Origin: Candidatus Peregrinibacteria bacterium CG_4_10_14_0_2_um_filter_43_11
GTDB lineage: Bacteria > Patescibacteriota > Gracilibacteria > UM-FILTER-43-11
Assembly (NCBI GenBank): GCA_002792495.1
Contig: PFOK01000062.1
Coordinates: 1 to 40,972, forward strand
Length of the DNA stretch: 40,972 bases
Direction: 5' to 3'
Part shown: positions 11,901 to 40,972 of the stretch, one piece after another
How positions within the stretch are numbered: the stretch's first letter is position 1
Layout: each line of letters opens with the position of its first letter
Notes under the pieces: model-generated
The model's input: only the letters and a program-made list of their open reading frames with translations
Told to the model about the DNA's origin: nothing
Databases searched by the model: none
Position numbers and translations under genes: made by a program

Positions 11901-12095
11901 TGCAGAATCGCCGGCATAAAAATCATTCTGAGTGCCTTCATACCCTTCGGGACGTATCGCCGTTACATAATCAAAATGCAATAAGCCTATCTTTTCCGCG
12001 TAAGCGGTGCCCGTGATGGGTGCTTTGGCATAGCTGACATTCGCGAATGCCATTGTGCTTAAAAACCCGATGAGAAGCCATTGTTTTAATTTCAT
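8979..12095 (-). CDS. Large secreted/surface protein (1038 aa) with N-terminal G-[YF]-x-W-x(4)-GW repeats; function unknown
   Basis: The signal peptide is MKLKQWLLIGFLSTMAFANVSYA. Repeats are TGTAYAEKIGLLHF, TGFLWNDKIGWTIL, TGYFWSEYAGWIKL and HGYAWSKTLGWIKF. The remainder is long, Gly/Thr/Asn-rich and probably beta-rich. The ATG overlaps the stop of the upstream gene (ATGA at 12092-12095). Confidence 0.8.
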   Translation of the reverse strand: MKLKQWLLIGFLSTMAFANVSYAKAPITGTAYAEKIGLLHFDYVTAIRPEGYEGTQNDFYAGDSAKQGSSAFTSNIYDFNDKGKCGSDYCPLTGFLWNDKIGWTILEGQQIQNALTKVDFPESDFARIQFNGRLTGYFWSEYAGWIKLSASSAGTTTGTANQTQDDWGVWVGPNPDGNGQMFHGYAWSKTLGWIKFEKGKEDTIAFGTSTDWIPDLTPPVLLAKENAWFLNESEIGTITWAELADDPESGIRNDSFITVEKEPGNNFAACNAPGMISLGFDQKLISASISMIGLIKKPPLGYCQYTLTGSIINKAGMKLTIGGTPSGDQGYSPPIHFFVRAGSYNKDKSKISFTKNNGVADGKDPITYNLALNDIAKNPIVAIDCATCPKRKITINGLFKNQMRYDSVYNTPGSPVKVNQSFLDTPGETSSLGIIPESEAYPVHITSFAPTTQNNTIEFKGFKIDIQEDEIPAVSINQKPISAKKINDLFENTGNQSLLSFEPGLIAFNGQIKTGGLTGEVIDGTPAQLEFDFKNKSINAILDSIDYDTVFEFTGSGAALLETQKIQHALSSDLVWGWLPPAPPLSGAHYENFSGEWSDSSAITELTSLFHNSYSILKNDVEPSVLEIDGSYEVDAIYDIPKNHIDRNDPTPMAIGAGSLASKQTIGFTPAFLFTPPNFNSDSLNLNIHQIITYRFPDQPQFTIYKPTANLVSGTKVKMTGVNFTGIGSGETIYDDGKNLDVVNVTGLQKLSEQMRRNVSQITLNLPSCTAGMSPLRAKGNHWTFKTSGSCVKTDENEKTVVLFYEGDSTQSLILGDGSDKTIQIPDGYRLTLILKGGLNLVIKNNIAYESEGHSFGIILLKDRGEGANIFIDSNPTNLAGMVFAEGSLMSSPNGTDYYYGENNLNSQELKNQLYWQGNIASRNTIGGTKNKIIPEGVSCGKATQYECAQRYDMDFIRRFNVSGDLAESGSRFSGGGICESDICSVGPLQTTVTLTPEGKIDKIQSKSLDAFFIEPDHRTPPPGFSVNSEQKSTEVIR

Positions 12096-13105
12096 TGGAG
12101 ATGATTGATACAGCTATTTTTTAAAGAGAGGGTGGTGATTTTTTCACACGAAGCGATGTCTTTTTTGGCGATGGCCTGCTTTAAATAGAAACGATTCAGA
12201 TTTTCGCCCTGAACCTGCAGACATTCGCTTCTTTTCTGATCATTCTGAATCGTGCCACAATAATTCAAATCCTTTTTCTCAAGGGTTAAATCAAAGTTGA
12301 CTTCGTCCCGGCAGTTCTTTTTTTCTTCGCCTTCTAACGATTCGCAGTCGTTCAGCAGTTCCGGGCTACTTTTGCCGACCTGGGGCATTTGTTCTTTATC
12401 AAACTCGGTCACTTTGATGTTTTGGGTCACTGTTTGATTACAATTTTCTTTTAGGGCGCTATTTGTGATTTCATCACAGAATTTTGAGTTCAGTGTTTCG
12501 ATGCCACTTGAAAAAGAAGTGTTGTCCAGACAGCCTTTTTTAAGAATCGAATCCTGAATGCTCTCGCACCGGGTTTTGTTTTTTGGAGTGTAGGTGAACA
12601 TGGCGCCGATTCGGTCTGTACAATTTTGTCGCAAAGCCGGCTCCATGATCTTTTGGCATATTCCCATGTCTATTTCACTGATCGCACGATTATAATAAAC
12701 CTGATTGAAGCACGTTTCGTGCTGCGTGGTGTTTTTTAAGATGGCGCATGTGTTTTCGTTTTCTTCTTTAATCGCCAACGCAAACCATGTGTTTTCGATG
12801 CAGTTTTGTTTGAGTTCGCTATCAAATTCAATGGTTTCACAGGCTTCCGGAGTTCCCTGCCTGAGTGCTTCATTCAAACGGACATTGTCCCGCTCTCTTT
12901 TTTCCTCTTCGGTCAGCTCAGGAGTCGCGAATTTTTTTCCATCTTTTTTTTCGGATTCACTTGTGGTCTGTTTTTCACTTGGAATGTTTTTTTGACTATG
13001 GCTTTGCAAAAATAACAGCACTCCGAATATCATCATGATCACTATAAAAAAGATGATCCAGCTCAGTATTCCTCCTTTTTGGTTTATTCTTGATTTTTTT
13101 CGCAT
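12092..13105 (-). CDS. N-terminally membrane-anchored protein with eight Cys-x(11-12)-Cys repeats; function unknown
   Basis: A TM anchor (ILSWIIFFIVIMMIFGVLLFL) and a charged linker are followed by 16 Cys residues in 8 regularly spaced pairs, for example ACETIEFDSELKQNC, TCAILKNTTQHETC, ICQKIMEPALRQNC and SCEKITTLSLKNSC. Confidence 0.75.
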   Translation of the reverse strand: MRKKSRINQKGGILSWIIFFIVIMMIFGVLLFLQSHSQKNIPSEKQTTSESEKKDGKKFATPELTEEEKRERDNVRLNEALRQGTPEACETIEFDSELKQNCIENTWFALAIKEENENTCAILKNTTQHETCFNQVYYNRAISEIDMGICQKIMEPALRQNCTDRIGAMFTYTPKNKTRCESIQDSILKKGCLDNTSFSSGIETLNSKFCDEITNSALKENCNQTVTQNIKVTEFDKEQMPQVGKSSPELLNDCESLEGEEKKNCRDEVNFDLTLEKKDLNYCGTIQNDQKRSECLQVQGENLNRFYLKQAIAKKDIASCEKITTLSLKNSCINHLQ

Positions 13106-13113
13106 TTCAACAC

Positions 13114-14592
13114 TTAAAAATTAAAGATGAGTAAAACGAATAATCCGTATCCAAAAAAGAACAGAAAAAGAGAGCCGATGAAATTTTGTCGGAACGACCG
13201 GTTTTTGATTTTTAAAATCAAGTGACTGAGCAACAGAAATAAGGTGATGTTGATGATGAGAGGGGATTCCAGGGTTTTGAGCACAAAAGTGCCGGGGAGT
13301 CCTATGTTTTTTTCGATTGAAAAATCCACCAGAAAGAAGTAGATGATGTAAAAAAACAGCAACCAGCTTACAAAGCTATCCACTTCCACAAAAAATTCCG
13401 TAAAATCATGTCGTTTTTTTGGGGGTCTTTGAGGTGTTTCCTGTTCTGCTTTCTGCCCTGTTTCCTCCCGTAGGGGCGTGTCACTTTCTTTTAAGTTTAT
13501 TCCGAGTGTCTTTTTTTCTCTCCATTGCTTCCATAGCTGTATCAATTCCTCTTTTCGTTTGGATTTAATGATCTTGCCGGCCGATAAATAACTCCTTAAT
13601 TTTTTGAGTATTTCAATCCATTTTGGTGATCCCCCTGAGGAAGTGGGAGCGTTTTTGGTGTCCAATTCTTCAATAACCGCTTTTATTCCCGCCTGTTCTT
13701 TGGATAATTTTTGAGCGAGGACGGTGCCTTCGTGTTGCAAGGAAGAGATAGTTTGCCTGCCTTTTAAAAGTCCGAATTGTTTTTTGATCCGATTGAATAT
13801 TCCTTTTATCTGCCCCGCTTTTTCGTTGGCTGGGGGCTGTTGAAAAATGTCATTGCCCGTATCCATCTCTTCGATCGGTGCAATGTCGTTTGCGTAAGAT
13901 GTTTTGCTGACATCGTATTCCTCCGGGTTTTTGGGGTTCTGAATGAGCTCCAGCAAGGTACGGCTGACTTCCGCGATGTGCTTTGCATTGTTGCTCGTGC
14001 GGATTCTTTCCAGTTCATCGATTTTTCTTTTCATTTCGTTCATTTGCTCCGCGCTGAACAAAAGGCCATGCGTGCTGATGATCTTTTTGGTGATTTCGAT
14101 TATTTTATCGATTTCGGACACCAGTGCCGGGTTGTTTTCGCTTTCCTCTTTCTCCATATATTCCGTTTTTTCCCGCGGGGTGGCCGTTTTTTCTTCTTTG
14201 AATTGTTTTTCGAATAAAATCAATTTCTGTTCACTGCCTTTGATTTCCGCTTCATTCGCTTTTTCCGGATAGAGCGCGAAAACATTGAATTGATATTCCG
14301 TTTTTAATCGTTTGTAAGCTTCGTAATCGTTTTTCGCGTCAATCGTCCCCTCAATGGATTTTTTATCGTGATCGCTTGCTCTGAAGAAAAAGGTTTGAAT
14401 GCCTTCCTGTTTCTTTGATTTTTCTTCCGTTGTTTTTTTGCTGCGGTATTCTTCTTCCGAAATCTCGTCTATAGCAATAATCGAAAGCTGCATTTTATGC
14501 AATTCTTCCTGGGCGTCGTTCAGGGATAGGGCTTCGAGAGCACCATCGACTTTTTGACTGTTCTGTGTGAGGGCGGTGTATTTAAATTTCAT
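13114..14592 (-). CDS. Membrane protein with two tandem PilC/GspF-N-terminus-like repeats, a long charged coiled region and 3 C-terminal TM helices
   Basis: The ORF track gives 13114..14649. I prefer the ATG at 14592 (MKFKYTALTQ...) because a TGCTAAAAT extended -10 (14630-14638, minus strand) overlaps the upstream ATG. The two motifs are FKYTALTQNSQKVDGALEALSLNDAQEELHKMQLSIIAI and FFFRASDHDKKSIEGTIDAKNDYEAYKRLKTEYQFNVFAL. Confidence 0.7.
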   Translation of the reverse strand: MKFKYTALTQNSQKVDGALEALSLNDAQEELHKMQLSIIAIDEISEEEYRSKKTTEEKSKKQEGIQTFFFRASDHDKKSIEGTIDAKNDYEAYKRLKTEYQFNVFALYPEKANEAEIKGSEQKLILFEKQFKEEKTATPREKTEYMEKEESENNPALVSEIDKIIEITKKIISTHGLLFSAEQMNEMKRKIDELERIRTSNNAKHIAEVSRTLLELIQNPKNPEEYDVSKTSYANDIAPIEEMDTGNDIFQQPPANEKAGQIKGIFNRIKKQFGLLKGRQTISSLQHEGTVLAQKLSKEQAGIKAVIEELDTKNAPTSSGGSPKWIEILKKLRSYLSAGKIIKSKRKEELIQLWKQWREKKTLGINLKESDTPLREETGQKAEQETPQRPPKKRHDFTEFFVEVDSFVSWLLFFYIIYFFLVDFSIEKNIGLPGTFVLKTLESPLIINITLFLLLSHLILKIKNRSFRQNFIGSLFLFFFGYGLFVLLIFNF

Positions 14593-14738
14593 TTTAGTCT
14601 GACTTTTGTTTGTGTCTTCATTTTGATTTATTTTAGCATGAATAATCAAATAGCAAAATCAAGAAAATGACGAAACCGGATTATGCTCCCGGTTGTTTTT
14701 GAGATATATTGTTTGTAAGTTTATTATTGAATGATTCT

Positions 14739-16924: not shown

Positions 16925-19900
16925 TTATTTTGGCGGAACCAGGGTTTTGATCTGTGTGAGCAGTTCTTTGTCGGAAAATCGTGAGCTCGCGAATATGGTT
17001 TGGATGATCAAATCCATGTTATCAAACACGTCATTCAAGCTGTTGATGGTTCTCCAATGTGTGGCGCCTTCCGGATAGTTCGCCTGCAAATGCGCGACAA
17101 TTTGTTGAGCCAGAGTGTGTTGGTTGGTCGATTCATCCCTCTTGGCACTTTCGGTATCCCGTAGCATTCCGAAAAGTGTTCCATCAAGCTTGTTCATAAA
17201 GTCATGCATTTTATTACGATGCTGTTGAACCGTCCATTCACCGTGATGTCCCACCCCGGCTTCACGGGCGATGGCGTTTAAAATGTTCGGGTTTCCTCTT
17301 GTGTACGGAGCCGATCCGTTTTCACGCAAGTATGCCACATTATCTACAATGCCATCCGCAACAGCCACCCACGCGACTTGTCGCGCGAATTCTTTGCGGA
17401 AGTTTATTTTTTCCGCCGCTTGTGCGTTTTCTTCAAACCACTGCAAGGCTCCCACGTACGCGTTTTCAATACCGGTGTCTTTGGCTTCCTCCTGTCCGGA
17501 ACGCCCCTGAAGATAACGTTTGGCCGTGTGTCCATCGCCCATGGCGGCAATACTGCGTCCCCAATCATGATCCCAACCGCGTTCGGATACGGATTTACGC
17601 ACACGCTGGATGGTCATTGTGTCATTCTGTACCTGAGTCCAGTAGAAGTTCTGGAATTCTTTGCCCGGTTTCCCTTTTTTAAAATCGTCTTTAAAATAGG
17701 TTTCACAATAATCTTTATAATCTTTGGCGCTTAGTGGCGGTCTTTTGCTATAAATCCACTGCGTTGCCGGCCAGGTATTCAGATTTTTATCCAGCACAAG
17801 TCCTCTATCCTGTGTCAATAATCCTGTGGCCATGCCTGCCATGAGATAAAAGAAAACTCCTTCCGCGTAACATTTCCCGTTCTTAATACTGTATTCCAAT
17901 CCGGATTCATATTCCTGAGGATCCACGTTTTGACCGTTCATGTGCATATTGAGCAGCTGTTCCAGTCGTTCCGTGATCTGATCCTGAATGCTGTCGTAGG
18001 TGGCTTCAAATTTCTTTTTCTGTCCTTCATATGATTCATGGTTTTTACTCTCCAGTGATAAAAACTCATCGTAATCCCAAATTTGCCCGGTGGCACTGTG
18101 CAATTTTTGACGCAAAAGCGGCGGGTTGTGCAACAGTACCGGATCGTCCGGTGTCAAATGGGTTACATTCTGCAGTTTATTGAGTACTTTCCAGAGGCTT
18201 GCATCACGCCAGTCAATACGGCCTTTGTCGGCTAATATTCTTAAAATGGCTTTTACCTGATCCTGATTGGGATCAATGCTGTTTGCCGCTTTTTTTAAAA
18301 GATTTTTAAGTGCCCAGGCATCCATTGAGCTATACCGGTTTTTCCATTCATCCACTTCTTCCTGTTCCGCTTTTTCTTGTCGCGCGGTGGCTTCGCTGGC
18401 CAGAGTTCCCGCGAAGGGGATGGTACTGAACAAAGCCTGTCCCATTCGGGCGGCGTGATCGTTTTGTTTGCGCTTATGGCGACGTTGGAAAAACTCTTTG
18501 ACCTGAGCTCCCACCTGAATCATATCGCCGACTGCCAAAAAGGAAGTGCAGTTCCAGAGTTGTCGGAAGGGCGTGATTTTTTTGTTCTTGATGTGCATGG
18601 CGGCTTCCGCGAGTTTTGGGGTCATTTCCTGTAAATCCTTGTTTACCTTCTTGATGCGTTCTTCTACTTCTTCCGCTGAATATCCGTTTGATGTGCTTCT
18701 GTAATCTTCATTGAGTTCGCGGGTTCTTTCGTTGTATTTGTTCATCAAGTGCAACAAATCACTTGCCCCCGGTAAATAACCGATGTATTCGGAGCTTCCG
18801 ATCTCTTTTATGATTGCTTTTGATTTGTTGATTTCTTCTTCAAAAGTGGTTGGGGATTTATTGCCCACCACTTCGGTGCCGCCTCCGCCGCCTTCTTCCG
18901 ACGCTTTGGAGCCACCTCCCCCCATGCTGTCATACCCATGGATTTTTTCTTCAATATCCCCGGCAGACATTCCTGTGTCCGCAAGGGCGAGTCCTGCCAT
19001 GAGCTTGCTCAGTTTGTCCGCCGGGGTTCCCGGTTTTATGTTTTGGCTTCTAAAATCATTTTGCATGGCCCAGAGTTCTCCGGTCATGTCTTCATCGCTC
19101 CAATCGTCCGCGGTGTAAGGCCCTTTGTATCCTTCCGGGTAACGGTTAGGGTCATTTAATTTGGACGGTCTTTTGTCGGGAAAGGTTTCCACAAAAGCAT
19201 GTCGGATCTCCTCCCATTTTCCGCCGGTTTTATAGCGGTTGACCTGATCCCTTTGGAGATTTGCATCATGATCGAATTCCACATGGCGTAATTCGTGGGT
19301 GATCTGCGCCTTAAAATTTGCCAATGCCGTAGGATCATCGTTGTTTATGCCTTCGCGATCCACGATGATTTTCCATTCATCCCCGAATTCATAAAACACC
19401 ATATTTCCGCCCGTGTGATCCCTTAAATTACGAACACCGCCTTTTCGGAGTGGGTAATGCTCGAATGTATTTTGGTCCACATATTCTACATGTTCAGCAA
19501 AATTCGCTTGTAATATTTTTTGGATTTCACCTGCACTATTTACTGTGGCGAGTTGTCGTATAACGGCAGCCGCTTTTATAGCGGTTTCGGATGATTTCGG
19601 ATCCAGACTTTCCTTTGCGTTATCCCTATCTTCCATCAGACCGAGATCGTTTTTAAGGGTGTCGAGCTCTACCAAAATAGCTTGCAGTTCTTTTGGTTTT
19701 GGGGTATCGCCCAGAGTCCTGATTCTTACCGTTAAGGCATTCAGGTATGTTGCTTTTTCGGAACCCGGTTTATTCCAGTCCGGAAGGCCATTTGTCCATT
19801 GAATGTCTTTGGCAAAATCGGAAGGTTTTCTTCCTTTTTCGCGCGCCAATAATGTTTTGATCGTGTCGTTGGCGACAGGTGGGGGAGTGACTCCCGCGTC

Positions 19901-21349
19901 TTTTAGCTTTTGAATGCGGTCTTTTCGCAATTGCTTCTGAATAGCCGCGATGGTTTCCGGAGTTAGGGTCGCGATTTTTTGCCGGATCGCCTCAAAACTT
20001 TGAGTAATCACTTGTTTTACTTCGGCGGTGTTGCTTTTTATGTAGTCCAAATTCGGCATGGGCGAAGATTGGTCGCTTAACGCGCTATCCAGATCCGCTT
20101 CGGCTTTGTCGAGTCTTTGATCCATGTTTTCCAGAGCCGTGTCTATATTTTCCCCTTTCACTCCATTGAAAAGAGCAAGGAACGCCTGTTTTGACTGAAA
20201 CGCTTTTTCAAAGACACTACGGTGTTTTTCACTGAAGCGGGCTTTATTGGTTTCAAATCGATTTTTTAACGCTTCATAACGATTGCCTAAATAAACGCGC
20301 ATTTGTTCCATTCTCATTTCGCGTGCTTCGAGCAACATGTTGGCAATCTGCATTTTTGCCTCATAAGGCAGTTTATCGGCAAGGCTTACGAGGTTCTTTT
20401 CTTCTATTGCTCTTACATGCCTATGGGTTTGTCTTGCCTGCACATCCGGACTCTCTTGTCCTTCAGTGAGTTTTAGATAAGCCCTGTAATTTTCCTTCGT
20501 TTCATCACTATCGGCGACTCCTCTTGTTTCTAAAAATTGCTCATAACCGGGTATTGAGCCGGTATTTCTTTGACGTTCGTCGAATCCCTCCCTTTCTGCC
20601 TGCGATTGCTTTGCACGCCGGCGAATCCATCCGCTTTCATCCGTTTGCATTGATTCCAGCATTCGATTGATTGCCTCAATTTCTGTTGTATTCTTTGCTT
20701 GTTTGGCTATTTTTAGTCGGGTTTTTAATACTTCTTTTTCCTTTTTGTAATCGGCTTCCGCTCCTTTCAGATACATTGCCCCTTCCATCTTGAAAGTGGT
20801 TTGCATTGCCACTTTGTCGGCTGTGTCCATTCGTGCGTTTGCGATTTTGATTTGTCCTTCCAGTTTTTCGTCAAAAAACGCACTGATGTCCGTTTCGAAT
20901 AAATCACTCAAGTCCACCGGGCTTATATTGGCCGTATCGTTCAGTCTGGCTAAAAAATGGGTGTAAGACGCCGCCTCAAGACGTGCGTTCCGGAATTCTT
21001 CCGCCGTACGAACGGGAGCTTTGAGTGACTCCATTTTAGTTTCGCAGACGGTTTTTTTACGGGTGATTGTCTGTACATTTTTTTCAGTTCCCGGGGCAAT
21101 CAGCTTTCCGATTTTATGACGTTTTCTTTCGGCTTCAATCCGGTGCTCCAATTGTCTTATTTTTCCCCCTAAAATGTCTTGTCCGTTGGTGTACTTACTG
21201 GGCAATTCGGGTTTGTCAAGGGCATCGGCCGTTTGTTGCCATCCCGGTTTGAATCGGGAAAAAAGGCCTTTCGCGTCGCGAAAAATCAGTCGGTTTTCAC
21301 CGTTTTTTTCAAAAGACCCGCTTTGTTCGTTTTTAAAATGCTTCAACAT
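16925..21349 (-). CDS. Giant orphan protein (1474 aa), no signal peptide or TM helix seen; single HExxH motif; function unknown
   Basis: The 4.4-kb ORF is uninterrupted. The N-terminal ~650 aa are highly charged and probably helical or coiled. ITHELRHVEFDH falls at about residue 685. A Gly-rich linker (MGGGGSKASEEGGGGGT) precedes a C-terminal ~600 aa globular-looking region. I saw no nucleotide-binding or other catalytic motif. Confidence 0.85.
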   Translation of the reverse strand: MLKHFKNEQSGSFEKNGENRLIFRDAKGLFSRFKPGWQQTADALDKPELPSKYTNGQDILGGKIRQLEHRIEAERKRHKIGKLIAPGTEKNVQTITRKKTVCETKMESLKAPVRTAEEFRNARLEAASYTHFLARLNDTANISPVDLSDLFETDISAFFDEKLEGQIKIANARMDTADKVAMQTTFKMEGAMYLKGAEADYKKEKEVLKTRLKIAKQAKNTTEIEAINRMLESMQTDESGWIRRRAKQSQAEREGFDERQRNTGSIPGYEQFLETRGVADSDETKENYRAYLKLTEGQESPDVQARQTHRHVRAIEEKNLVSLADKLPYEAKMQIANMLLEAREMRMEQMRVYLGNRYEALKNRFETNKARFSEKHRSVFEKAFQSKQAFLALFNGVKGENIDTALENMDQRLDKAEADLDSALSDQSSPMPNLDYIKSNTAEVKQVITQSFEAIRQKIATLTPETIAAIQKQLRKDRIQKLKDAGVTPPPVANDTIKTLLAREKGRKPSDFAKDIQWTNGLPDWNKPGSEKATYLNALTVRIRTLGDTPKPKELQAILVELDTLKNDLGLMEDRDNAKESLDPKSSETAIKAAAVIRQLATVNSAGEIQKILQANFAEHVEYVDQNTFEHYPLRKGGVRNLRDHTGGNMVFYEFGDEWKIIVDREGINNDDPTALANFKAQITHELRHVEFDHDANLQRDQVNRYKTGGKWEEIRHAFVETFPDKRPSKLNDPNRYPEGYKGPYTADDWSDEDMTGELWAMQNDFRSQNIKPGTPADKLSKLMAGLALADTGMSAGDIEEKIHGYDSMGGGGSKASEEGGGGGTEVVGNKSPTTFEEEINKSKAIIKEIGSSEYIGYLPGASDLLHLMNKYNERTRELNEDYRSTSNGYSAEEVEERIKKVNKDLQEMTPKLAEAAMHIKNKKITPFRQLWNCTSFLAVGDMIQVGAQVKEFFQRRHKRKQNDHAARMGQALFSTIPFAGTLASEATARQEKAEQEEVDEWKNRYSSMDAWALKNLLKKAANSIDPNQDQVKAILRILADKGRIDWRDASLWKVLNKLQNVTHLTPDDPVLLHNPPLLRQKLHSATGQIWDYDEFLSLESKNHESYEGQKKKFEATYDSIQDQITERLEQLLNMHMNGQNVDPQEYESGLEYSIKNGKCYAEGVFFYLMAGMATGLLTQDRGLVLDKNLNTWPATQWIYSKRPPLSAKDYKDYCETYFKDDFKKGKPGKEFQNFYWTQVQNDTMTIQRVRKSVSERGWDHDWGRSIAAMGDGHTAKRYLQGRSGQEEAKDTGIENAYVGALQWFEENAQAAEKINFRKEFARQVAWVAVADGIVDNVAYLRENGSAPYTRGNPNILNAIAREAGVGHHGEWTVQQHRNKMHDFMNKLDGTLFGMLRDTESAKRDESTNQHTLAQQIVAHLQANYPEGATHWRTINSLNDVFDNMDLIIQTIFASSRFSDKELLTQIKTLVPPK

Positions 21350-24568: not shown

Positions 24569-26836
24569 TTACTTCTGATACACCACCATATTGTTCATCT
24601 GAATCATTTTCATGCGGAATATGGTTTCGGCCACTTCGGCGCGCGTCATTCCGTTGTTGGGATACAGCTTATTTCCGTTGGTATCGATGATGTTTTTTTG
24701 GTTGGCCATGTAGGCGTAGGGCGAAAACCAAGAGTATTTCGGAACGTCGAGATAAGGAGCCGAAACAATAGAGGCGGATAATTTCATACTTGTTGTTTCG
24801 AATAAAATTTTAAGATATTCGGCACGATTGACGGTTTGTGCCGGTTTAAAAGTGCCGTCGGGGTATCCTTTCACGATTTCTTTTTGGATGGCTGTCGCGA
24901 GTGTTCCCGCATACCAGGCGTTATTTTCCGTATCGGAAAAGGGGAGTGATCCGTTCACGCCGCTTTCCACATTGAAAGCGAGCATCAGCATTTTTAGAGC
25001 TTCCACACGGTTGACGGTTTTTGCGGGCTGGAAAGAGCCGTCTTGGTAACCATTAATGACACCTTCTTCTTTTAGATATTTTATGGCTTCATAATTTGGA
25101 TGCCCCAATTTGATGTCGTTAAAAGGTCGGCTGTCCTCTTGTGTTAGCGGGTCACTTTCTCCAACCAATGCGCCGTTTTGCGCACGCAGGCGGATCCGTG
25201 TGTTTTCGCCCAATGATTTGATTCTGAAGGTGGCTATTCCATTTATGAAATCACGTGCGTTTAAACGATTGGGGGTAATGGTTGCTTTGCCTTCAGTTGC
25301 GGTTATTGCCACCTCTCCGCTAAAATTCACCGAGGAGGTGGGATTCCCTTCGCTGTCCACGGCGATGAGTTTTATCACTTCCACCATTCCCTTCTGAAAG
25401 TGGCCGTCATGTTCGAACTTCAATGCGGTGGTATTTGCCACTTTTTCAATGAAGGTGATTTGATGAGCCGCTCTGCCGATGAGCACATTGCCGATTCCCG
25501 CTGTACCGCTTTTAACGACCACATCTGCCGTTCCGTTTTTGAAATCGGATTTTTTGAGAAGAGGCTGAAGACTGTTTCCTACACCACTCACCTGAACCTT
25601 GATGATGTCATTTTCCCCTAAAGTATTCAATTGATTCTGTTCGTCGGTGACGATGATGCGCACTCCATTATTGATCAGGCTGACTGTTTCGCCGGATAGC
25701 TTAAAAATCAGTAAAGAGGTATCGACTTTGTCATTCTGAATCGGTTCGATGATTTCCACAGTATTTGGCTCCACGATCGTTGTCGGTGTTTCTTCCGGTT
25801 TCGTAACCTCGGTGATGGTAATGATTTCCGACTCTTTGTCGGATTCATTGGTCTGAACGGCTCCTACGGTGTTGGCGGCTATGGCTGAGCTGCTTAAAAT
25901 AGTATTTGTGCCAAGATATTTCAACGAGAAGGTCATGGGATTTAAGGTCATCTCTTTTGCCTTTCCTATTCCCAATCCCGCGTTTATGGCTTCAAAAAAG
26001 CTCAGACCGGCGTCTTGGGATTCCTGCCATGTAAAAGGCCAATAGGGGTGCCATGGTGCGGAATCACGGTCGATTTGAAAATGCAAGTGCGGGCTGCTGG
26101 CGGTTCCTGTACTTCCGCTGGTTCCGATCAGATCTCCTTTGAGTACATTTTGACCTTCTACTACGTTGATGTCGCCTAAGTGATTGTAGCTTGAATAAAT
26201 GGTGGTGGTTTTTCCCGGATTGTCAGAATCCGGCACATCGATGTGTTTGATCACGATGTGGTGTCCAAAACCGTCACTTTGCATGGATGTTTTAATCACT
26301 TTTCCGTTCGCAATTGCATGGACGGGTGTTCCCGAAGGAACACGGATATCCACCGCCAAATGACTGCCGGAGTTTTCGTAGCGACTTCCATTGTAATCCC
26401 CCAAATAAACAACGGGGTAAGTGATTTTTGTATTCCGTATTAGGTCCTGCGCGTGGTTTCCCCATTGCAATTGGTCATCCGGGAATTCCAGTACGGATAG
26501 GTCGTAAGGAGGCAATGAAATTAAATCCTGAGGAGCGATTTCGTTGTAAACGGCTGTGTAATGATCCCCACTCCAGTTGCTCCAATCCGGTATTTTTTCT
26601 ATGGGTAAAACGGTTCCGTCAAAAGATTCCGGTATTTCTAAAACGCTTGCCTTAAACCAATCTCCGGTTTGGTTTTTATAATAAACCAGTACCGTTAAAA
26701 GAATGGTTGCTATTGCAAGTCCCGTGTATTTTAAAATCATTTGCCATCGCGCGGGAATCCACTGTGTTTTTGAGATACGTACACTTTTTTTGCTTTGACG
26801 GATCTTGCGAATGTGAAATAGTTTTTTTGCTGTCAT
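24569..26836 (-). CDS. Membrane-anchored M23 (LytM-type) metallopeptidase with Ig-like middle region and three C-terminal SLH repeats
   Basis: The N-terminal TM helix is YTGLAIATILLTVLVYY. The M23 motifs are HLAVDIRVPSGTPVHAIANGKV (HxxxD) and SPHLHFQI (HxH). The C-terminus has three repeats of the type F.D......Y.AI..L.E.G...GY.DG.F.P...V.RAE, which is SLH-like. Confidence 0.88.
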   Translation of the reverse strand: MTAKKLFHIRKIRQSKKSVRISKTQWIPARWQMILKYTGLAIATILLTVLVYYKNQTGDWFKASVLEIPESFDGTVLPIEKIPDWSNWSGDHYTAVYNEIAPQDLISLPPYDLSVLEFPDDQLQWGNHAQDLIRNTKITYPVVYLGDYNGSRYENSGSHLAVDIRVPSGTPVHAIANGKVIKTSMQSDGFGHHIVIKHIDVPDSDNPGKTTTIYSSYNHLGDINVVEGQNVLKGDLIGTSGSTGTASSPHLHFQIDRDSAPWHPYWPFTWQESQDAGLSFFEAINAGLGIGKAKEMTLNPMTFSLKYLGTNTILSSSAIAANTVGAVQTNESDKESEIITITEVTKPEETPTTIVEPNTVEIIEPIQNDKVDTSLLIFKLSGETVSLINNGVRIIVTDEQNQLNTLGENDIIKVQVSGVGNSLQPLLKKSDFKNGTADVVVKSGTAGIGNVLIGRAAHQITFIEKVANTTALKFEHDGHFQKGMVEVIKLIAVDSEGNPTSSVNFSGEVAITATEGKATITPNRLNARDFINGIATFRIKSLGENTRIRLRAQNGALVGESDPLTQEDSRPFNDIKLGHPNYEAIKYLKEEGVINGYQDGSFQPAKTVNRVEALKMLMLAFNVESGVNGSLPFSDTENNAWYAGTLATAIQKEIVKGYPDGTFKPAQTVNRAEYLKILFETTSMKLSASIVSAPYLDVPKYSWFSPYAYMANQKNIIDTNGNKLYPNNGMTRAEVAETIFRMKMIQMNNMVVYQK

Positions 26837-28343: not shown

Positions 28344-29858
28344 TTGGCGCAACCGGAAAAATGTCCGGATTGCCGCTTGCAGAATTTAATGGCTTATCGA
28401 AATGAGAGATCGTTTCACAGAAGACAGTGTGACAAGTGCAAGAAAAATATTATTTCTATTTTCGCAGAATCCGCGCCATGCCCTGTTTATTGCAGAGAAT
28501 GTTGGCGGGGGGATGGTTGGGAAGCCCTCGATTACGGAAGGGGTTTTGATTTTGGAAAGCCTTTTTTTGAACAGTATTTTGAGTTGATGAAAGTGGTTCC
28601 GCAACTCTTTATGGTCAACGCGCTTGGAGAGAATGTGGACTATTCCAATTACGGCTATCGAAACAAAAATTGTTATCTTCTCATCTCAAGTGATGATTGT
28701 GAGGATTGTTATTTCGGAAATTACCTATGGAATTCCAAAAATTGCATGGATTGCTTGTATGTCACAAACAGTCAGGTTTGTTATGAGCTAACGGATAGCC
28801 ATAATTGCTACCATTGTTTTTATTCCGATGAGCTCGAAAACTGCAACGATTGTTTTTTCTCATACGATCTTAAGGGCTGCCAGAATTGCGTTGGGTGCAT
28901 TGGCCTGCGTCACAAATCTTATTGTTGGTTCAATGAGCAGCTTTTGGAAGAAGGATTTAAAGCGAAATTAAAGGATTTAAATGCAAATGATCCATCCCAT
29001 TGGGTGAGTAAATTAAAAGAAAGGAAAGGGGATGTATTTCATCGTTCTACGACCACTGTGAATTGCGAAGATTGTCTTGGAGATCACATAAAAGACTGCA
29101 AAAACGCAAAATTTTGTTTTGATAGCTATGGCCTTGAGGATTCCAAATTCATCGTCAATGGTCCGGGGCAAATCAAAAATTGTTATGATTTTTGTGGGGC
29201 CAAAGAGCTCGAAGCCTCGTATCAGGGAATTTCCACAGGAGGCCCGGGGATAAATTTACTGTTTAATAATCATGCCTGGTCGGGTTGCGCGAATGTCATT
29301 TATGGATCTTTCAACGTGGCTTCTCAATATTTATTTGGCTGTGCGGGGGTAAGGCACAAAAAATACTGTATTTTGAACAAGCAATACTCCAAGGAGGTTT
29401 ACGAGGAATTGGCACCGAAAATCATTGAGCATATGTCTGCCTCCGGAGAATGGGGTGAATTTTTCCCGATCCGATTTGCTTTTTTCCACTACAACGAAAC
29501 ACTGGCAAATGATTTATTCCCTTTAGATAAAGAGGCGGTTCTCAAAAGAGGATGGAAATTCAGAGAAGAAGAGGGTGTAAAAGGTGCCCCTGTTCAGGAA
29601 AGGGTTAAAAAATGCGCTGACTGTGGAAAGAACTATAAAATGATCGATCACGAACTTCACTTTTATCAGAACGAGGGGTTGGCGCAACCGGAAAAATGTC
29701 CGGATTGCCGACACAAAATACGAATGAATAAAAGAAATCCCTACAAACTATGGAAAAGACAGTGTGGCAAATGCGGAACAGAAATATTAAGCACTTACGC
29801 TTCACAGCGCCCCGAAAAAATTTGCTGTCAGCAATGTTATTTATCTGGCACATATTGA
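28344..29858 (+). CDS. Cysteine-rich multi-zinc-ribbon protein, paralog 3, apparently lacking the first ~30 aa of the family (non-ATG start or 5'-truncated gene)
   Basis: The frame opens after a TAA at 28326-28328, and no ATG occurs before 28389. The ORF track uses TTG at 28344. The protein starts inside the N-terminal module (..PEKCPDCRLQNLMAYRNERSFHRRQCDKCKK), but the rest is full length and conserved (WGEFFP, HYNETLA, C-terminal RQCGKCGTEILSTY...CCQQCY). Confidence 0.7.
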   Translation: MAQPEKCPDCRLQNLMAYRNERSFHRRQCDKCKKNIISIFAESAPCPVYCRECWRGDGWEALDYGRGFDFGKPFFEQYFELMKVVPQLFMVNALGENVDYSNYGYRNKNCYLLISSDDCEDCYFGNYLWNSKNCMDCLYVTNSQVCYELTDSHNCYHCFYSDELENCNDCFFSYDLKGCQNCVGCIGLRHKSYCWFNEQLLEEGFKAKLKDLNANDPSHWVSKLKERKGDVFHRSTTTVNCEDCLGDHIKDCKNAKFCFDSYGLEDSKFIVNGPGQIKNCYDFCGAKELEASYQGISTGGPGINLLFNNHAWSGCANVIYGSFNVASQYLFGCAGVRHKKYCILNKQYSKEVYEELAPKIIEHMSASGEWGEFFPIRFAFFHYNETLANDLFPLDKEAVLKRGWKFREEEGVKGAPVQERVKKCADCGKNYKMIDHELHFYQNEGLAQPEKCPDCRHKIRMNKRNPYKLWKRQCGKCGTEILSTYASQRPEKICCQQCYLSGTY

Positions 29859-29971: not shown

Positions 29972-30047
29972 TGGAGCCACCACCCGGAATCGAACCGGGG
30001 ACCTCACCCTTACCATGGGTGCGCTCTACCAACTGAGCTATAGCGGC
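29972..30047 (-). tRNA. tRNA-Thr (anticodon GGU), CCA encoded
   Basis: The minus strand reads gccgcta ta gctc agttggta gagc g caccc atGGTaa gggtg aggtc cccgg ttcgatt ccggg tggtggc t cca. This gives a full cloverleaf, with G-U pairs in the acceptor stem. Confidence 0.93.
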
Positions 30048-31147: not shown

Positions 31148-31239
31148 GGAGAGGTGGCCGAGTGGCTGAAGGCGCCGCTCTCGAAAAGCGGTATTCCGAG
31201 CAATCGGGATCGAGGGTTCAAATCCCTTCCTCTCCGCCA
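31148..31239 (+). tRNA. tRNA-Ser (anticodon CGA), class II with long variable arm, CCA encoded
   Basis: The sequence reads ggagagg tg gcc gagtggctgaa ggc g ccgct ctCGAaa agcgg tattccgagcaatcgggatc gaggg ttcaaat ccctt cctctcc g cca. Confidence 0.93.
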
Positions 31240-37172: not shown

Positions 37173-38315
37173 ATGAACATTATCAACATCTTCATCATTG
37201 TTGGTATCGGTGTAGTCGGGTTTTTGGTATACCAGCTCACACAGGAATCCAAACGCTCCCGTGAGGAGAAGGGGAATGACAAAACCGTTTTAATGTTGCA
37301 GGAGCAACTCAGTCAATTGCGTGAAACATTTGATAAGGGGTTAAAGAGCCAGGATAAAACCATGCAGGATCAAATGCATCGGTCACAAGAAGCACTCCAA
37401 AATCAATTCGCTTCTACTAATAAAATCGTTCAGGAAGTCACTGTGGAGCTCACGAAAATCAAGGATACAAATAAACAGGTGGTCGGGTTTGCCGAGCAGT
37501 TAAAAACACTCGAAAACACCTTAAAAAATCCAAAACAGCGCGGTATTTTGGGGGAATTTTTTCTCGAAAACCTTCTTTCCAATGTGCTCCCACCAACCAG
37601 TTTTCAAATGCAGTACGCTTTTAAGGGGGGTGTTATTGTCGATGCGATCATTCGCGTGAACGATAAAATCATTCCCATTGATGCCAAGTTTTCTCTCGAG
37701 AACTACAACAAAATCATGGAAGAGAAAGACGACACAAGTCGGGAGCGATTGCAGAAAGAATTTAAGTCCGATCTTAAAAAGCGTATCGACGAAACCGGTA
37801 AATACGTAAAACCCGAAGAAAATACAACTGAATTTGCCTTCATGTTCATTCCGGCGGATGGTGTGTTTTACAACTTACTCTCTCATAAAGTCGGCGCATT
37901 AGAAGTGAATACCTCGGATCTGATCGATTACGCGTTCAAAAAAAACGTGATCATTGTTTCGCCTATGACCTTTTACGCGTACCTGCAAACGGTGATGCAC
38001 GCACTTCGAGCCCTGAAGATTGAAGAATCTGCCAAAGAAATTCAAAAATGCGTAGGGGATTTAGGGCGTCATATGAACGCGTATCAGGATTACATGATCA
38101 AATTAGGAGGTCATCTTGGAACCACCGTGAACAGTTACAATCATGCGGGAAAAGAATTCATGAAAATAGATAAAGATGTGTTTCGCATCACAAAAGGGCA
38201 GTCCGGAGGAGGAGCCGATATTCCTGCCATTGATTCCCCCAAAAAAATGGAAGACATTCACGTCGAAATAAGGGGGATCTCAAGCAAACCGATCGCGGCA
38301 GAATTGGCAGAGTGA
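37173..38315 (+). CDS. rmuC: DNA recombination protein RmuC family
   Basis: An N-terminal TM helix and a coiled coil are followed by NPKQRGILGEFFLENLLSNVLP, which matches the RmuC signature KxRGxWGExxLE as I remember it. A nuclease-like C-terminal domain (IPIDAKF...FIPADGVFY) follows. Confidence 0.8.
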   Translation: MNIINIFIIVGIGVVGFLVYQLTQESKRSREEKGNDKTVLMLQEQLSQLRETFDKGLKSQDKTMQDQMHRSQEALQNQFASTNKIVQEVTVELTKIKDTNKQVVGFAEQLKTLENTLKNPKQRGILGEFFLENLLSNVLPPTSFQMQYAFKGGVIVDAIIRVNDKIIPIDAKFSLENYNKIMEEKDDTSRERLQKEFKSDLKKRIDETGKYVKPEENTTEFAFMFIPADGVFYNLLSHKVGALEVNTSDLIDYAFKKNVIIVSPMTFYAYLQTVMHALRALKIEESAKEIQKCVGDLGRHMNAYQDYMIKLGGHLGTTVNSYNHAGKEFMKIDKDVFRITKGQSGGGADIPAIDSPKKMEDIHVEIRGISSKPIAAELAE

Positions 38316-38404: not shown

Positions 38405-38433
38405 TTGCTTTTTTGGCTTAAATTTGCTATAAT
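38405..38433 (+). promoter_or_regulatory. Strong promoter TTGCTT-17-TATAAT with extended TG, driving the pilin array
   Basis: The sequence reads ttgctt ttttggcttaaatttgc tataat. It lies inside the GTG-initiated version of the first pilin ORF, which argues that the real start is the ATG at 38453. Confidence 0.6.
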
Positions 38434-38452
38434 AATAGGATTAAATATTCAA

Positions 38453-38887
38453 ATGCAAGCAATGATTAAAAAATTATTCATCACCACTCTTCTGATTTTT
38501 AGCTTATGTAACGTAGCTTTGCCCATGTTTTCGGCCGTACCCATTGCTGTGGCACAGGAATCCGCGGACAGTTTGGATAGCCCTGATTTCATGTTCAACT
38601 TAAGGGCGATCACGCATGAAGACATCAAAGAAGAAAAATTCATCAAAGGAGGAATCAATTTTATTTTCGAACGTGTGATTACGGTCATGGCAATCACGGT
38701 CAGCTCCGCGGCAGTATTGATGATCACGGTGGGGGGTTTTATGATTTTGGCTTCCGGAGGACGTCAACAATGGGTAGATAATGGAAAAACATTCATTTTC
38801 AAGTCCATTATTGGCCTGGCGGTAACGCTTGGGGCTTATATTTTTGTCACGACAGTTCAGGTGCTCATTAACAATATTTATGGTTAA
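38453..38887 (+). CDS. TrbC/VirB2-like (type IV secretion-type) pilin, paralog 1
   Basis: The signal peptide is MQAMIKKLFITTLLIFSLCNVALPMFSAVPIAVA|Q. The C-terminal hairpin consists of a hydrophobic helix (AAVLMITVGGFMILASGG), a charged loop (RQQWVDNGK), and a second helix (SIIGLAVTLGAYIFV). Confidence 0.75.
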   Translation: MQAMIKKLFITTLLIFSLCNVALPMFSAVPIAVAQESADSLDSPDFMFNLRAITHEDIKEEKFIKGGINFIFERVITVMAITVSSAAVLMITVGGFMILASGGRQQWVDNGKTFIFKSIIGLAVTLGAYIFVTTVQVLINNIYG

Positions 38888-39527
38888 ATACGTTCGTTTC
38901 GTCATCATCGGGTTAACGATGAGTTTCTGCCTGGCAGTGATCGCTCCGATGGTGAGCTATTTTGAAACATCAGCTTACGCGCAGGATACATCATCGGGAG
39001 AAGAAGCCACCGTAAAACCGGAAAAACCGGATCTTGCCTCCAAGCCTTCGGAGTGCAAGAGTCAAAAGGTCGGTGACGACATGATGGTGCCGGAAAACTG
39101 TTTGTTTTTGGAAGAACCGATTGGCGGAAAACCGAATTACGATTTATTCGTTGTGGAATGTCATCTAAATGAGGGGAACAAAACCATATGCACGTATTCC
39201 CTCTGGGGAGGCGAAGCGATTGATTCTACCAAACACGGCCCCGTACAGGCGATTGTAACGCGGCTTAAAGGAAACAGCGAAAAAAACGGAATGATATTAC
39301 TCTATAGTTATCTTGAGCTGATTTATCGGTATTTTTCAGGCATCATCGTAGGTCTTGTGGTTTTATTCATCATCATCGGCGGGATTCAAATGACCACTTC
39401 CTCGGGAGATACTTCCAAATTTGACGAGGGCAAAAAACGGATCATCCGTGCGATTACCGGAATGATTTTCTGGTTCCTTGCCTCTCTAATTTTATACACA
39501 ATTAACCCAACTTTCTTTGCGTTTTAA
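38880..39527 (+). CDS. TrbC/VirB2-like pilin, paralog 2 (larger Cys-containing N-terminal domain)
   Basis: The start ATG at 38880 overlaps the previous stop (ATGGTTAA). The signal peptide is MVKYVRFVIIGLTMSFCLAVIAPMVSYFETSAYA|Q. The C-terminus is VGLVVLFIIIGGIQMTTSSGDTSKFDEGKKRIIRAITGMIFWFLASLILY. Confidence 0.75.
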   Translation: MVKYVRFVIIGLTMSFCLAVIAPMVSYFETSAYAQDTSSGEEATVKPEKPDLASKPSECKSQKVGDDMMVPENCLFLEEPIGGKPNYDLFVVECHLNEGNKTICTYSLWGGEAIDSTKHGPVQAIVTRLKGNSEKNGMILLYSYLELIYRYFSGIIVGLVVLFIIIGGIQMTTSSGDTSKFDEGKKRIIRAITGMIFWFLASLILYTINPTFFAF

Positions 39528-39921
39528 CACACTTAAAGCCCGGCTGACATTGCTCGTATTCGCGTTTCTTCAAATGGGTGCCAAAGCGCATGCCATTACT
39601 CTGGGAAATCGTGAAGTCGAATTGAGTTCGCCTGTAGGCAGTGATATTTTGCCGGGCGGTGGTATTCATCAGGACGAAATCCGTACGAGTTTTGTTTTTA
39701 GCAACCTTATTCCTTTTGTGATCAAATACGCGATCCGTCTCGCTGTCATTCTTGCGGTAGCCGCTTTGATCGTGGGGGGGTTTTTGTTCATCACTTCTTA
39801 CGGAGACACGGAAAAACGCACCACGGCCCAGAAAACCATCATGTGGGCATTGATCGGTCTCATCATCGTCATGACCGCGTTTGGAATCGTCACCATTATC
39901 ACTAACATCAGCTTCGTTTAA
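39517..39921 (+). CDS. TrbC/VirB2-like pilin, paralog 3
   Basis: The TTG start overlaps the previous gene by 11 nt. The signal peptide is MRFNTLKARLTLLVFAFLQMGAKAHA|I. The C-terminus is AVAALIVGGFLFITSYGDTEKRTTAQKTIMWALIGLIIVMTAFGIV. Confidence 0.7.
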   Translation: MRFNTLKARLTLLVFAFLQMGAKAHAITLGNREVELSSPVGSDILPGGGIHQDEIRTSFVFSNLIPFVIKYAIRLAVILAVAALIVGGFLFITSYGDTEKRTTAQKTIMWALIGLIIVMTAFGIVTIITNISFV

Positions 39922-39922
39922 T

Positions 39923-40570
39923 ATGATAAAAACCGCTTACAACCGCCGGCTCAAATTATTCCTGATTATCTTCAGCGTTCTTACATTGTGCACGAGTGTC
40001 TATGCCGACGCGCGTGATGACTTCAAACAGGTTCTTGAATCCCGTCAAGAGCAAGTCACTTCCGCCTACAATCAACTGGACTTCCGGGTCAAGGGAATGA
40101 ACTCGTATGACCCCAAAAAAAACGGCGCCAAAGATTTGCTCGGAAAAGCAAAAAAAGCGGTTGATGACTTTAAAAAACTGGATGCCGGCAAACAAATTGA
40201 TACATTGGCAAAAGACGTTTACGACGCGAAAAAAGAATTTAAAACAGCGGAAGAAAACGCGCTATCAGCCATCAATGCCGTGAATTTATTTTTACTGAGT
40301 CCGGCGCGTCCCGGCAACGTTCCGGAAGGGGATTTAGTCGAGGATTTTGCTCCTCAGATCATTCGGCTTTTGTTCCGCTTTACTTCCATCGCCATTCTCA
40401 TTTCCATCCTTGTTTCCGCGGTCATGATGATCACGGCAATGGACAACGAGGAACGTCATACCAAAGCCAAGCAAATGCTTATTTTTTCCCTCATCGGTTT
40501 TGCTTTTGTCGTGCTGGCTTTCGCGATTGTCAAAGCGGTGACCGACATCGATTTCTTCGGATTCGTTTAA
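39923..40570 (+). CDS. TrbC/VirB2-like pilin, paralog 4 (helical N-terminal domain)
   Basis: The ATG lies 1 nt after the previous stop. The signal peptide is MIKTAYNRRLKLFLIIFSVLTLCTSVYA|D. The C-terminus is ILISILVSAVMMITAMDNEERHTKAKQMLIFSLIGFAFVVLAFAIV. Confidence 0.7.
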   Translation: MIKTAYNRRLKLFLIIFSVLTLCTSVYADARDDFKQVLESRQEQVTSAYNQLDFRVKGMNSYDPKKNGAKDLLGKAKKAVDDFKKLDAGKQIDTLAKDVYDAKKEFKTAEENALSAINAVNLFLLSPARPGNVPEGDLVEDFAPQIIRLLFRFTSIAILISILVSAVMMITAMDNEERHTKAKQMLIFSLIGFAFVVLAFAIVKAVTDIDFFGFV

Positions 40571-40584
40571 ACCGTTAAAACCCC

Positions 40585-40972
40585 ATGAAAAAACTCTTTT
40601 ATCGCATAGTAGGCACCTTCCTTTTATTCCCCTTGGCCATGAGCAACACTCTGGGGATCACTATCAGTGACTTTCGGGATGAAGTATTCCGTCCGGATAA
40701 TTTACCGGTCGGCAGGGAAGGGGATGGCTCGGTAGAAACAAAACTTATTGACGCGTTCAATTTCGCGATCAATTTAATTCTGTACGCTTCGGGAAGTATC
40801 GCGGTTTTGATGTTCGTGATCGGCGGTGTGCTTTACATCACCTCCCTCGGTAAACAGGAACAGATGGACAACGCCAAAAAAACGCTTAAATTCGCTCTCA
40901 TAGGTTTGCTGGTGGTTATTTTTGCTTACGCCATTGTCACGAATATCATCGACCTCATCTACCGGACAACGG
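40585..40972 (+). CDS. TrbC/VirB2-like pilin, paralog 5 (3' end runs off the window; not in the ORF track)
   Basis: I translated this ORF by hand: MKKLFYRIVGTFLLFPLAMSNTLG...SIAVLMFVIGGVLYITSLGKQEQMDNAKKTLKFALIGLLVVIFAYAIVTNII.... The frame is still open at base 40972. Confidence 0.7.
   Translation, partial: MKKLFYRIVGTFLLFPLAMSNTLGITISDFRDEVFRPDNLPVGREGDGSVETKLIDAFNFAINLILYASGSIAVLMFVIGGVLYITSLGKQEQMDNAKKTLKFALIGLLVVIFAYAIVTNIIDLIYRTT

Follow-up and report, generated by a model that had tools for sequence, protein, structure and literature searches.

At the end of a 40,972-nt stretch of contig PFOK01000062.1 from a Candidatus Peregrinibacteria genome (Candidate Phyla Radiation, CPR), hereafter the window, lie five co-oriented and closely coupled small genes (positions 38462-40972, + strand), which we refer to as g1 to g5. 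Judged from their sequences, the encoded proteins are true paralogues with divergent, predicted membrane hairpins, belonging to one pilin family, PF18895 (T4SS_pilin; T4SS, type IV secretion system). A first-pass annotation, made from the letters of the window alone, had described five consecutive small open reading frames (ORFs) with a shared plan, and this was borne out by the ORFs themselves, by hydropathy, by PF18895 and by profile comparisons with hhalign. The ORFs, all on the + strand, span positions 38453 or 38462 to 38887 (g1), 38880-39527 (g2), 39517-39921 (g3), 39923-40570 (g4) and 40585 to past 40972 (g5). The g1/g2 and g2/g3 junctions are overlaps of 8 and 11 nt, and the g3/g4 and g4/g5 junctions are gaps of 1 and 14 nt, exactly as that annotation had claimed for these coupled starts.

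The window contains 129 codons of g5 and lacks its last codon and its stop. The source contig (41,164 bp) ends about 190 bp past the window, inside an insertion sequence (IS) of the ISL3 family. An overlapping 9.6-kb contig, L002 (L numbers denote overlapping contigs and other loci throughout), reaches 3.5 kb further and contains the complete gene (L002 5753-6145), which encodes 130 aa and ends 4 nt past the window. The array, earlier put at "at least five" genes, consists of exactly five.

For g1, the start codon at 38462 (141 aa) is probably to be preferred over the in-frame ATG at 38453 (144 aa), because the orthologues begin at the MIKK position. Gene callers were split on this start (144 versus 141 aa) and also on that of g3 (134 versus 123 aa). 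At the g2/g3 junction, the 11 nt at 39517-39527 serve both genes, encoding the opening residues of g3 (LRF, from a TTG start) as well as the invariant C-terminus of g2 (FFAF followed by the stop codon); this overlap constrains both genes.

A promoter-like element is present upstream of g1 at positions 38405-38433 (+ strand). As read from the sequence, it would consist of a -35 hexamer TTGCTT (38405-38410), a 17-nt spacer and an extended -10 region made up of TGc and TATAAT (38425-38433, with TATAAT at 38428-38433). The extended -10 region is perfect, but the -35 hexamer is weak and matches the consensus at only three of six positions, which is why a consensus scan did not list the element. The element is kept 5' of gene 1 in seven of eight related genomes: L007 and L008 have a near-identical 35-nt block ahead of gene 1, and L009, L010, L011, L014 and L015 have TGnTAnAAT 23-46 nt 5' of it. 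This conservation supports the reality of the promoter, because it is retained although the proteins of these genomes are only ~60-65% identical. The consensus scan found no internal promoter or convincing terminator in the array. The five genes constitute a single operon, transcribed together as one array.

Hydropathy analysis revealed the same plan in all five proteins: an N-terminal signal-like hydrophobic segment, an ectodomain and, at the C-terminus, a pair of hydrophobic helices with a short charged loop between them. The PF18895-type architecture, that is, a signal peptide and two helices with a short polar or charged loop, is thus present in 5/5. One cleavage site, described as AxA-type, was predicted per protein (AVA↓Q, AYA↓Q, AHA↓I, VYA↓D and TLG↓I), and the ectodomains range from 32 to 113 aa, with three proteins having only ~32-37 aa. 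The hairpin signature that had been described as conserved stands as far as the hairpin itself is concerned; its "GG" occurs in 4/5 proteins, but a literal "AKK" is found in g5 only. The earlier statement that the N-terminal domains are mutually unrelated and that one of them is Cys-rich was correct, the latter being that of g2.

Each of the five proteins has its own conserved features. The 141-aa product of g1 (38462-38887; 144 aa from 38453) has a predicted signal peptide at residues 1-31, a short ectodomain and a hairpin at 65-141; its orthologues, present in eight genomes, share the motifs FMF-L...TH-D in the ectodomain and GINYIFER. The g2 protein (38880-39527; 215 aa) has a predicted signal peptide at 1-34, a beta-rich ectodomain of ~105 aa and a hairpin at 140-215. 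Its ectodomain contains four Cys residues: C59 and C74, which are invariant among 67 orthologues, and C94 and C104, which at least 90% of them retain; further conserved motifs are PSEC, NCLFLEEPIGG and the invariant C-terminal LYTINPTFFAF. The g3 protein (39517-39921; 134 aa, TTG start) has a predicted signal peptide at 1-26, a short ectodomain with the conserved motif PVG-DILPGG, and a hairpin at 64-134, and its orthologues begin with LRFK or MK at the same place. The g4 protein (39923-40570; 215 aa) has a predicted signal peptide at 1-28, a K/E/D/A-rich ectodomain of ~113 aa and a hairpin at 142-215 ending in TDIDFFGFV, with N-DPKK, VPEGD and TDIDFF-FI as conserved motifs. Finally, the g5 protein (40585-40972 for the part inside the window; 130 aa) has a predicted signal peptide at 1-24, a short ectodomain and a hairpin at 57-130. 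Its conserved motif is VYRPENLP-G, seen in the ectodomain as RP(D/E)NLP-G, and 64 orthologue clusters were found. The NCBI pipeline labels several array orthologues "pilin", some of those of g5 among them.

A small motif, (L/V)P-G, is common to g3, g4 and g5 and lies ~12-20 residues before the first hairpin helix. Its sites are 39640-39660 (DILPGGG in g3), 40316-40336 (GNVPEGD in g4) and 40696-40716 (DNLPVGR in g5), and it is kept in the g3, g4 and g5 orthologues as part of the motifs PVG-DILPGG, VPEGD and RPENLP-G.

Membership of PF18895 was assessed against the gathering score of the family (26.6 bits). Three of the five proteins score above this cut-off (g2, 38.6 bits; g3, 38.7 bits; g5, 40.2 bits; E-values 1e-9 to 4e-10), and for the other two PF18895 is the best match yet below the threshold (g1, 15.6 bits; g4, 20.7 bits). 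We then compared the five hairpins with each other by hhalign, each profile being built from nine orthologues. The five groups match each other with probabilities of 84-99% (E-values 7.5e-6 to 1e-17); for g1, the values against the g2-g5 hairpins are 96-97.5%, and for g4 they are 98.1% to g3, 97.7% to g5 and 84% to g2. With hhalign probabilities of 84-98% to the other members, g1 and g4 join the PF18895 family, and similarity of the five hairpins by chance is excluded. The identity among the five proteins is nevertheless low, 20-29% over the whole protein and 18-38% in the hairpin, with ectodomains that are unrelated. The first-pass annotation had pointed to a "T4SS pilin" family widespread in the CPR, and the membership of these divergent paralogues in PF18895 bears this out.

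Searches of NCBIfam pointed in a similar direction. The best match of g2-g5 there is NF045849, the "Mbov_0395 family pilin-like conjugal transfer protein", with scores that all remain under its curated cut-off of 40 bits (g3, 36.6; g4, 24.4; g5, 23.2; g2, 20.4 bits; E-values 2.6e-9 for g3 and 3e-4 to 2e-5 for g2, g4 and g5); g1 has no match to NF045849. At the level of sequence, NF045849 is a related family of which the five are not members, and it provides an independent, sub-threshold link to the conjugation of mycoplasma integrative and conjugative elements (ICEs). This link fits the published relatedness of patescibacterial T4SSs to the MPF-FATA class of monoderm bacteria.

Structure models were generated with AlphaFold2 for two of the proteins. 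The g5 model, based on an alignment of 52 sequences, has a mean confidence (pLDDT) of 78.6 and predicts a signal helix followed by a long hairpin with helices at 50-86 and 91-128. The g2 model (67 sequences; pLDDT 87.2) predicts a signal helix, a beta domain and a hairpin with helices at 137-172 and 178-208. The beta-rich domain of g2 (residues 55-126) is predicted with a pLDDT of 94-97, and the hairpins of both models with ~80-97. No fold counterpart of the g2 beta domain was found in the PDB by Foldseek. A search with the g2 ectodomain alone yielded only 24 clusters among 1.84 billion cluster representatives, all of them 131-279 aa in length, and in the full-length clusters among these the match sits at the position of the g2 ectodomain. 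This ectodomain may be private to its orthologue group, and perhaps a small fold private to the lineage.

Next, we analyzed the conservation of the array in related genomes. The closest RmuC proteins (61-67% identity), RmuC being encoded immediately upstream of the array, belong to Candidatus Peregrinibacteria metagenome-assembled genomes. Downstream of rmuC, eight loci of such genomes (L007-L012, L014 and L015) carry five PF18895-type genes whose products have the size pattern ~140-150, 200-250, 125-135, 215-250 and 125-131 aa. Two more distant metagenome contigs, L088 (317 kb) and L090, also contain rmuC and five pilin genes, in a block consisting of recF, S1, uvrD, rmuC, the five pilin genes, metG, sortase, ftsA-like, CYTH, purA, maf, ctpB-like and glyA. 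The array is located between rmuC and metG in a housekeeping block in ten related genomes, and the block continues with sortase, ftsA-like, CYTH and purA.

The orthology of the five positions is strict. Of the 45 proteins compared (nine genomes with five positions each), every one has all of its eight best BLASTP matches at its own position. The hairpins of the orthologues are 59-70% identical to those of the window proteins and the ectodomains 41-57%, as compared with 61-67% for RmuC. Moreover, six assemblies from separate samples and projects (L001-L006, from ENA ERZ27293351, ERZ27293362 and ERZ17912254, JGI 3300004105 and 3300025288, and SRR5487657) show 100% identity of the array DNA over 2.4-2.7 kb and represent one clonal population sampled repeatedly; differing gene lengths in L005 and L006 are due to start choices of the gene caller. 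No gene-conversion-like repeats or pseudogene cassettes were seen in the array. By their sequences, the genes fall into five fixed orthologous groups with conserved ectodomains that are inherited vertically, and they form a stable five-part set, not a fast-varying array. The fixed orthology, the motifs specific to each position and the identity across assemblies together argue for five non-redundant components under purifying selection.

A sortase gene (PF04203) is located two genes 3' of the array, after metG, in all relatives examined (L009 15817-16590, L088 12255-12998 and L090 12105-12881); it is not in the window. A sortase-linked mechanism was considered and rejected, as a C-terminal LPXTG signal is found in 0/5 of the pilins.

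Arrays of VirB2-like pilin genes in Patescibacteria have already been published, and the present locus is a further example of the kind described. In a survey by Quinonero-Coronel et al. (2025; PMC12102498), the PF04956 and PF18895 profiles were run against 3035 Patescibacteria genomes. VirB4 was detected in 2417 of the 3035 assemblies, and pilin genes in 1948 VirB4-containing assemblies, being near virB4 in 1135 of these. Arrays, defined as at least two pilin genes in tandem or one gene apart, numbered 441 in 383 assemblies; they comprise 2-11 genes, have a mean within-array identity of 25% and a maximum of 54%, and were proposed to help adaptation to host strains. In the class Gracilibacteria, the T4SS parts are dispersed and VirB6 is undetectable (PMC12102498). 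With five consecutive genes the present locus is an array by that definition, and its divergence, over the whole protein and in the hairpin, is in the published range. In Southlakia epibionticum, a series of predicted pilin genes that lies inside the T4SS cluster proved essential for epibiotic growth (Wang et al. 2023, PMC10633639; see also PMC12857230), and a 2025 review described this as possibly the first pilus-forming T4SS in a monoderm (PMC12857230). In addition, freshwater-specific protein clusters are reported to have PF18895 as their dominant domain.

Like the published arrays, of which that of S. epibionticum strain ML1 has six genes (PMC10633639), the one described here consists of tandem co-oriented PF18895 genes of low identity with Sec signal peptides in a CPR host. 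It differs in that the host belongs to the Peregrinibacteria, whereas published arrays are most abundant in Microgenomatia and Saccharimonadia (PMC12102498), and in that it is a fixed module of five orthologues at rmuC-metG, away from a T4SS cluster, with ectodomains conserved per position. The TrbC/VirB2/TrwL proteins (PF04956) and F-type TraA resemble the five proteins in having a long signal peptide, two helices with a short charged loop in a hairpin of ~70-75 aa, and a predicted topology with both termini outside. In contrast to those pilins, the proteins studied here show no detectable sequence or profile similarity to them, carry extra ectodomains of 32-113 aa, come from a monoderm host, have no VirB5, VirB1 or other such neighbours, and give no sign of cyclisation or acetylation. 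Bartonella Trw offers another parallel: Bartonella genomes each carry several distinct TrwL proteins, encoded by tandem T4SS pilin gene copies on the chromosome, to which a diversification of the exposed pilus surface has been ascribed (cited in PMC12102498). However, the Bartonella copies are recent, closely similar PF04956 genes inside the T4SS locus, whereas the paralogues in the window are ancient PF18895 genes, each a conserved orthologue, unlinked from the machinery. Mbov_0395 (NF045849) is, like them, a two-helix protein, of 80 residues, from a monoderm (MPF-FATA-type) conjugative element, but it is encoded by a single-copy ICE gene and lacks ectodomains, and all matches obtained here fall below 40 bits. 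Lastly, CedA1 of the archaeal Ced/Ted systems (PDB 8dfu) is a helical-hairpin pilin of a T4SS-related DNA-import machine in a cell without an outer membrane, but it has no sequence similarity to the five proteins and its Foldseek match to g2 is not significant.

Taken together, we favour the view, with a probability of about 55%, that the five PF18895 paralogues are subunits of a surface filament or conduit that would depend on a T4SS encoded elsewhere in the genome. Each protein would be exported by the Sec pathway, after which its signal peptide would be cleaved. The C-terminal helix-loop-helix would insert as a membrane hairpin, leaving the ectodomain and the C-terminus outside and the K/R loop in the cytoplasm. 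A VirB4-type, monoderm-like (MPF-FATA-related) T4SS encoded elsewhere would then pull the hairpins from the membrane, and these would stack into a surface filament or conduit for contact with the host cell. Conjugative pilins, and the pilin array that lies in the T4SS cluster of S. epibionticum and is essential there, provide the analogy on which we propose a filament. The five subunits would be non-redundant: one or two of the short g1, g3 and g5 types might form the bulk, and g2, with a putative disulfide-bonded beta domain, and g4, with a long charged domain, might be decorated or accessory subunits. A more specific proposal, which we regard as speculative and rather doubtful, is that of a heteropolymeric VirB2-type filament kit in a monoderm, fixed and co-evolving, in which the short subunits would build the shaft and g2 and g4 would act as tip, initiator or host-binding "minor pilins" in place of the missing VirB5, all encoded by a core-genome operon unlinked from the ATPase. 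Type II secretion systems and type IV pili, with one major and four minor pilins, would be a parallel to such a kit.

Several results weigh against a T4SS-dependent filament. One group concerns the relation to canonical pilins. The first-pass annotation had called the genes TrbC/VirB2-like and had suggested a profile search as a check, and although PF18895 came out as described above, PF04956 (TrbC/VirB2) does not match any of the five proteins at E<=1. In a control, R388 TrwL scores 70.7 bits on PF04956 and does not match PF18895. An hmmsearch of the PDB sequences with the g5 profile gave 0 matches at E<=10, and the hhalign probabilities remained below 1% whether the target was TrwL by itself or an alignment of 120 TrwL/VirB2 sequences (0.2-0.8% for the latter). 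Identity with VirB2/TrbC at the sequence level was rejected on these three negative results; "VirB2-like" refers here to the shared architecture and to the published linkage with virB4 in other CPR classes, not to similarity found in this analysis. Foldseek searches of the PDB with the g5 and g2 models likewise gave no significant match, the best (E 0.8-0.9) being unrelated helical hairpins; the discriminating power of so simple a fold is low. On the favourable side, the match of highest Foldseek probability for the g2 model was archaeal CedA1 (8dfu; probability 0.66, TM-score 0.68 by target length), but at rank 34 and E 3.9 it is not significant, and it is suggestive but not evidence. In addition, the mature proteins are 106-187 aa long and have ectodomains, which the canonical pilins of 70-75 aa lack, and in no CPR bacterium has a T4SS pilus been observed, only a "potential to elaborate conjugative pili" being described (PMC12857230).

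The other group of opposing results concerns the machinery. The first-pass annotation had placed VirB4-, VirB6- and VirD4-like genes past position 40972. No T4SS gene is present in the 3.5 kb downstream that are covered by L002, and what was found there is an ISL3 transposase, a 309-aa protein of no recognized family, and NUDIX and GrpB; in the relatives, metG, sortase and ftsA-like genes occupy this side. Upstream, no VirB4, VirB6, VirB3, VirB8, VirD4 or TrsD was detected in 38 kb (Pfam on the large ORFs of the window; phmmer), and in the relatives L007-L015, L088 and L090 there is no T4SS gene within +/-10 kb of the array. Proximity to virB4 or other T4SS genes (~20 genes) was found neither at this locus nor at those of the relatives. 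The phmmer queries were R388 VirB3, VirB4, VirB6, VirB8, VirB11 and VirD4, searched against every ORF of the window and of 86 loci; only two relevant ORFs matched, one VirD4-like (L073) and one VirB11-like (L016), and both belong to unrelated genomes. No T4SS neighbours were found for a lone PF18895 gene in L072 either.

The main alternative is that the proteins are hairpin-anchored surface proteins that function independently of a T4SS, the hairpin being a membrane anchor or oligomerisation module that displays five ectodomains (adhesins or receptors) and "pilin" being only a family label. This explanation is unlikely in our estimation. The array lies in a housekeeping block (recF-S1-uvrD-rmuC-[5]-metG-sortase-ftsA) without a T4SS gene within 10 kb in ~11 genomes, the lone gene in L072 is similarly far from T4SS genes, solved conjugative pilins show no link to the five proteins in sequence, profile or fold, and the ectodomains are conserved and orthologue-specific, as expected of binding modules. 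However, in other CPR classes the family is often found beside virB4 and is essential together with it (PMC12102498, PMC10633639), and the sub-threshold match to NF045849 connects it to a pilin-like family of conjugative elements. Furthermore, three of the five ectodomains, at ~32-37 aa, are too small for such a role, and it is their hairpins that are better conserved. Much less probable is a variation array, in which the paralogues would vary the exposed surface, affecting antigenicity or host range, as proposed for Bartonella TrwL and the Anaplasma VirB2 copies. The idea has been raised for Patescibacteria (PMC12102498), the first-pass annotation had also suggested a variable filament tip, and it would agree with the low hairpin identity within the array, the unrelated ectodomains and the IS element at the array end. 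But the comparison of paralogue number and N-terminal domains across relatives, also suggested there, revealed five genes in the same order with conserved ectodomains and no variability between genomes in number or order. A changeable tip is disfavoured by these five conserved orthologues in fixed order, as it is by the fixed size pattern in all related genomes, by the same-position best matches of all 45 proteins, by ectodomains that evolve only slightly faster than RmuC, by the identity of the six assemblies, and by the lack of conversion-like repeats or pseudogene cassettes.

The first-pass annotation had also held that, should T4SS or conjugation components be lacking downstream and profiles show no similarity to VirB2/TrbC-type pilins, the ORFs would be generic two-transmembrane proteins. 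Such components are indeed absent from the 3.5 kb covered, and so is similarity to PF04956, but the match to PF18895 stands. That the five are unrelated proteins whose resemblance is compositional, so that the array would not be a meaningful unit, could be argued from the two members below the Pfam threshold and from the tendency of hydrophobic helices to match many families weakly. This reading is effectively refuted by the PF18895 scores, with three of five proteins above a curated threshold, by the same-position orthology and by the hhalign comparisons between groups, which reach E 1e-17; besides, operon, order and promoter are conserved across genomes at ~60% protein identity.

In the single CPR species examined so far, the T4SS and its pilin array are essential. 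The locus alone reveals no new kind of system; what it adds is a clean comparative case, namely a vertically inherited set of five genes whose order and content do not change and which lies apart from the machinery. A fixed set that is conserved per position argues for five non-redundant structural roles over surface variation. The beta domain of g2 and the invariant C-terminal motifs NPTFFAF and TDIDFF are targets for structural and localisation work.

As to the surroundings, the ISL3-family insertion sequence (1315 bp; L002 6147-7461) starts 2 bp after the stop codon of g5. It encodes a 409-aa DDE_Tnp_ISL3 transposase and is bounded by 34-nt terminal inverted repeats (L002 6147-6180 and 7428-7461) that begin GGTTCTTATAACAAG. 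This element probably broke the assembly of the source contig, so that the window ends there. It cuts the array off from metG, the ancestral neighbour, which in this strain is displaced at the IS; past the element, L002 contains the gene for the 309-aa protein and then, on the other strand, NUDIX and GrpB. The 38 kb upstream of the array are ordinary chromosome, with genes for PNPase, S15, CorA, Lgt, PriA, PPDK, an M23/SLH protein, RecF, S1, a UvrD/PD-(D/E)XK helicase-nuclease and RmuC. The rmuC gene (37173-38315, + strand; PF02646, E 3e-55) is the conserved upstream neighbour that marks the syntenic position and is not part of the system.

The product of the M23/SLH gene (24569-26836, - strand; 755 aa) combines a Peptidase_M23 domain with three S-layer-homology (SLH) domains, and relatives carry an S41 peptidase with faint SLH matches, a hint that the envelope of this CPR lineage may have a layer anchored by SLH domains. 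No Pfam family is recognised at E<=0.001 in a run of three genes (8979-14649, - strand; 1038, 337 and 511 aa) or in a 1474-aa ORF (16925-21349, - strand), all of them encoding large lineage-specific proteins; at E<=0.1, stray matches far below threshold appear for the 1038- and 337-aa ORFs only. Three further genes (227-1897 and 1973-3604, both - strand, and 28344-29858, + strand) encode proteins of ~500-556 aa with a sub-threshold zf_Tbcl or zf_Tbcl_2 match near the C-terminus and nothing else recognisable, and these treble-clef zinc-finger proteins may form a paralogous family. Finally, a tRNA-Thr(GGT) gene at 29972-30047 (- strand) and a tRNA-Ser(CGA) gene at 31148-31239 (+ strand) are the sole Rfam/ARAGORN matches in the window.

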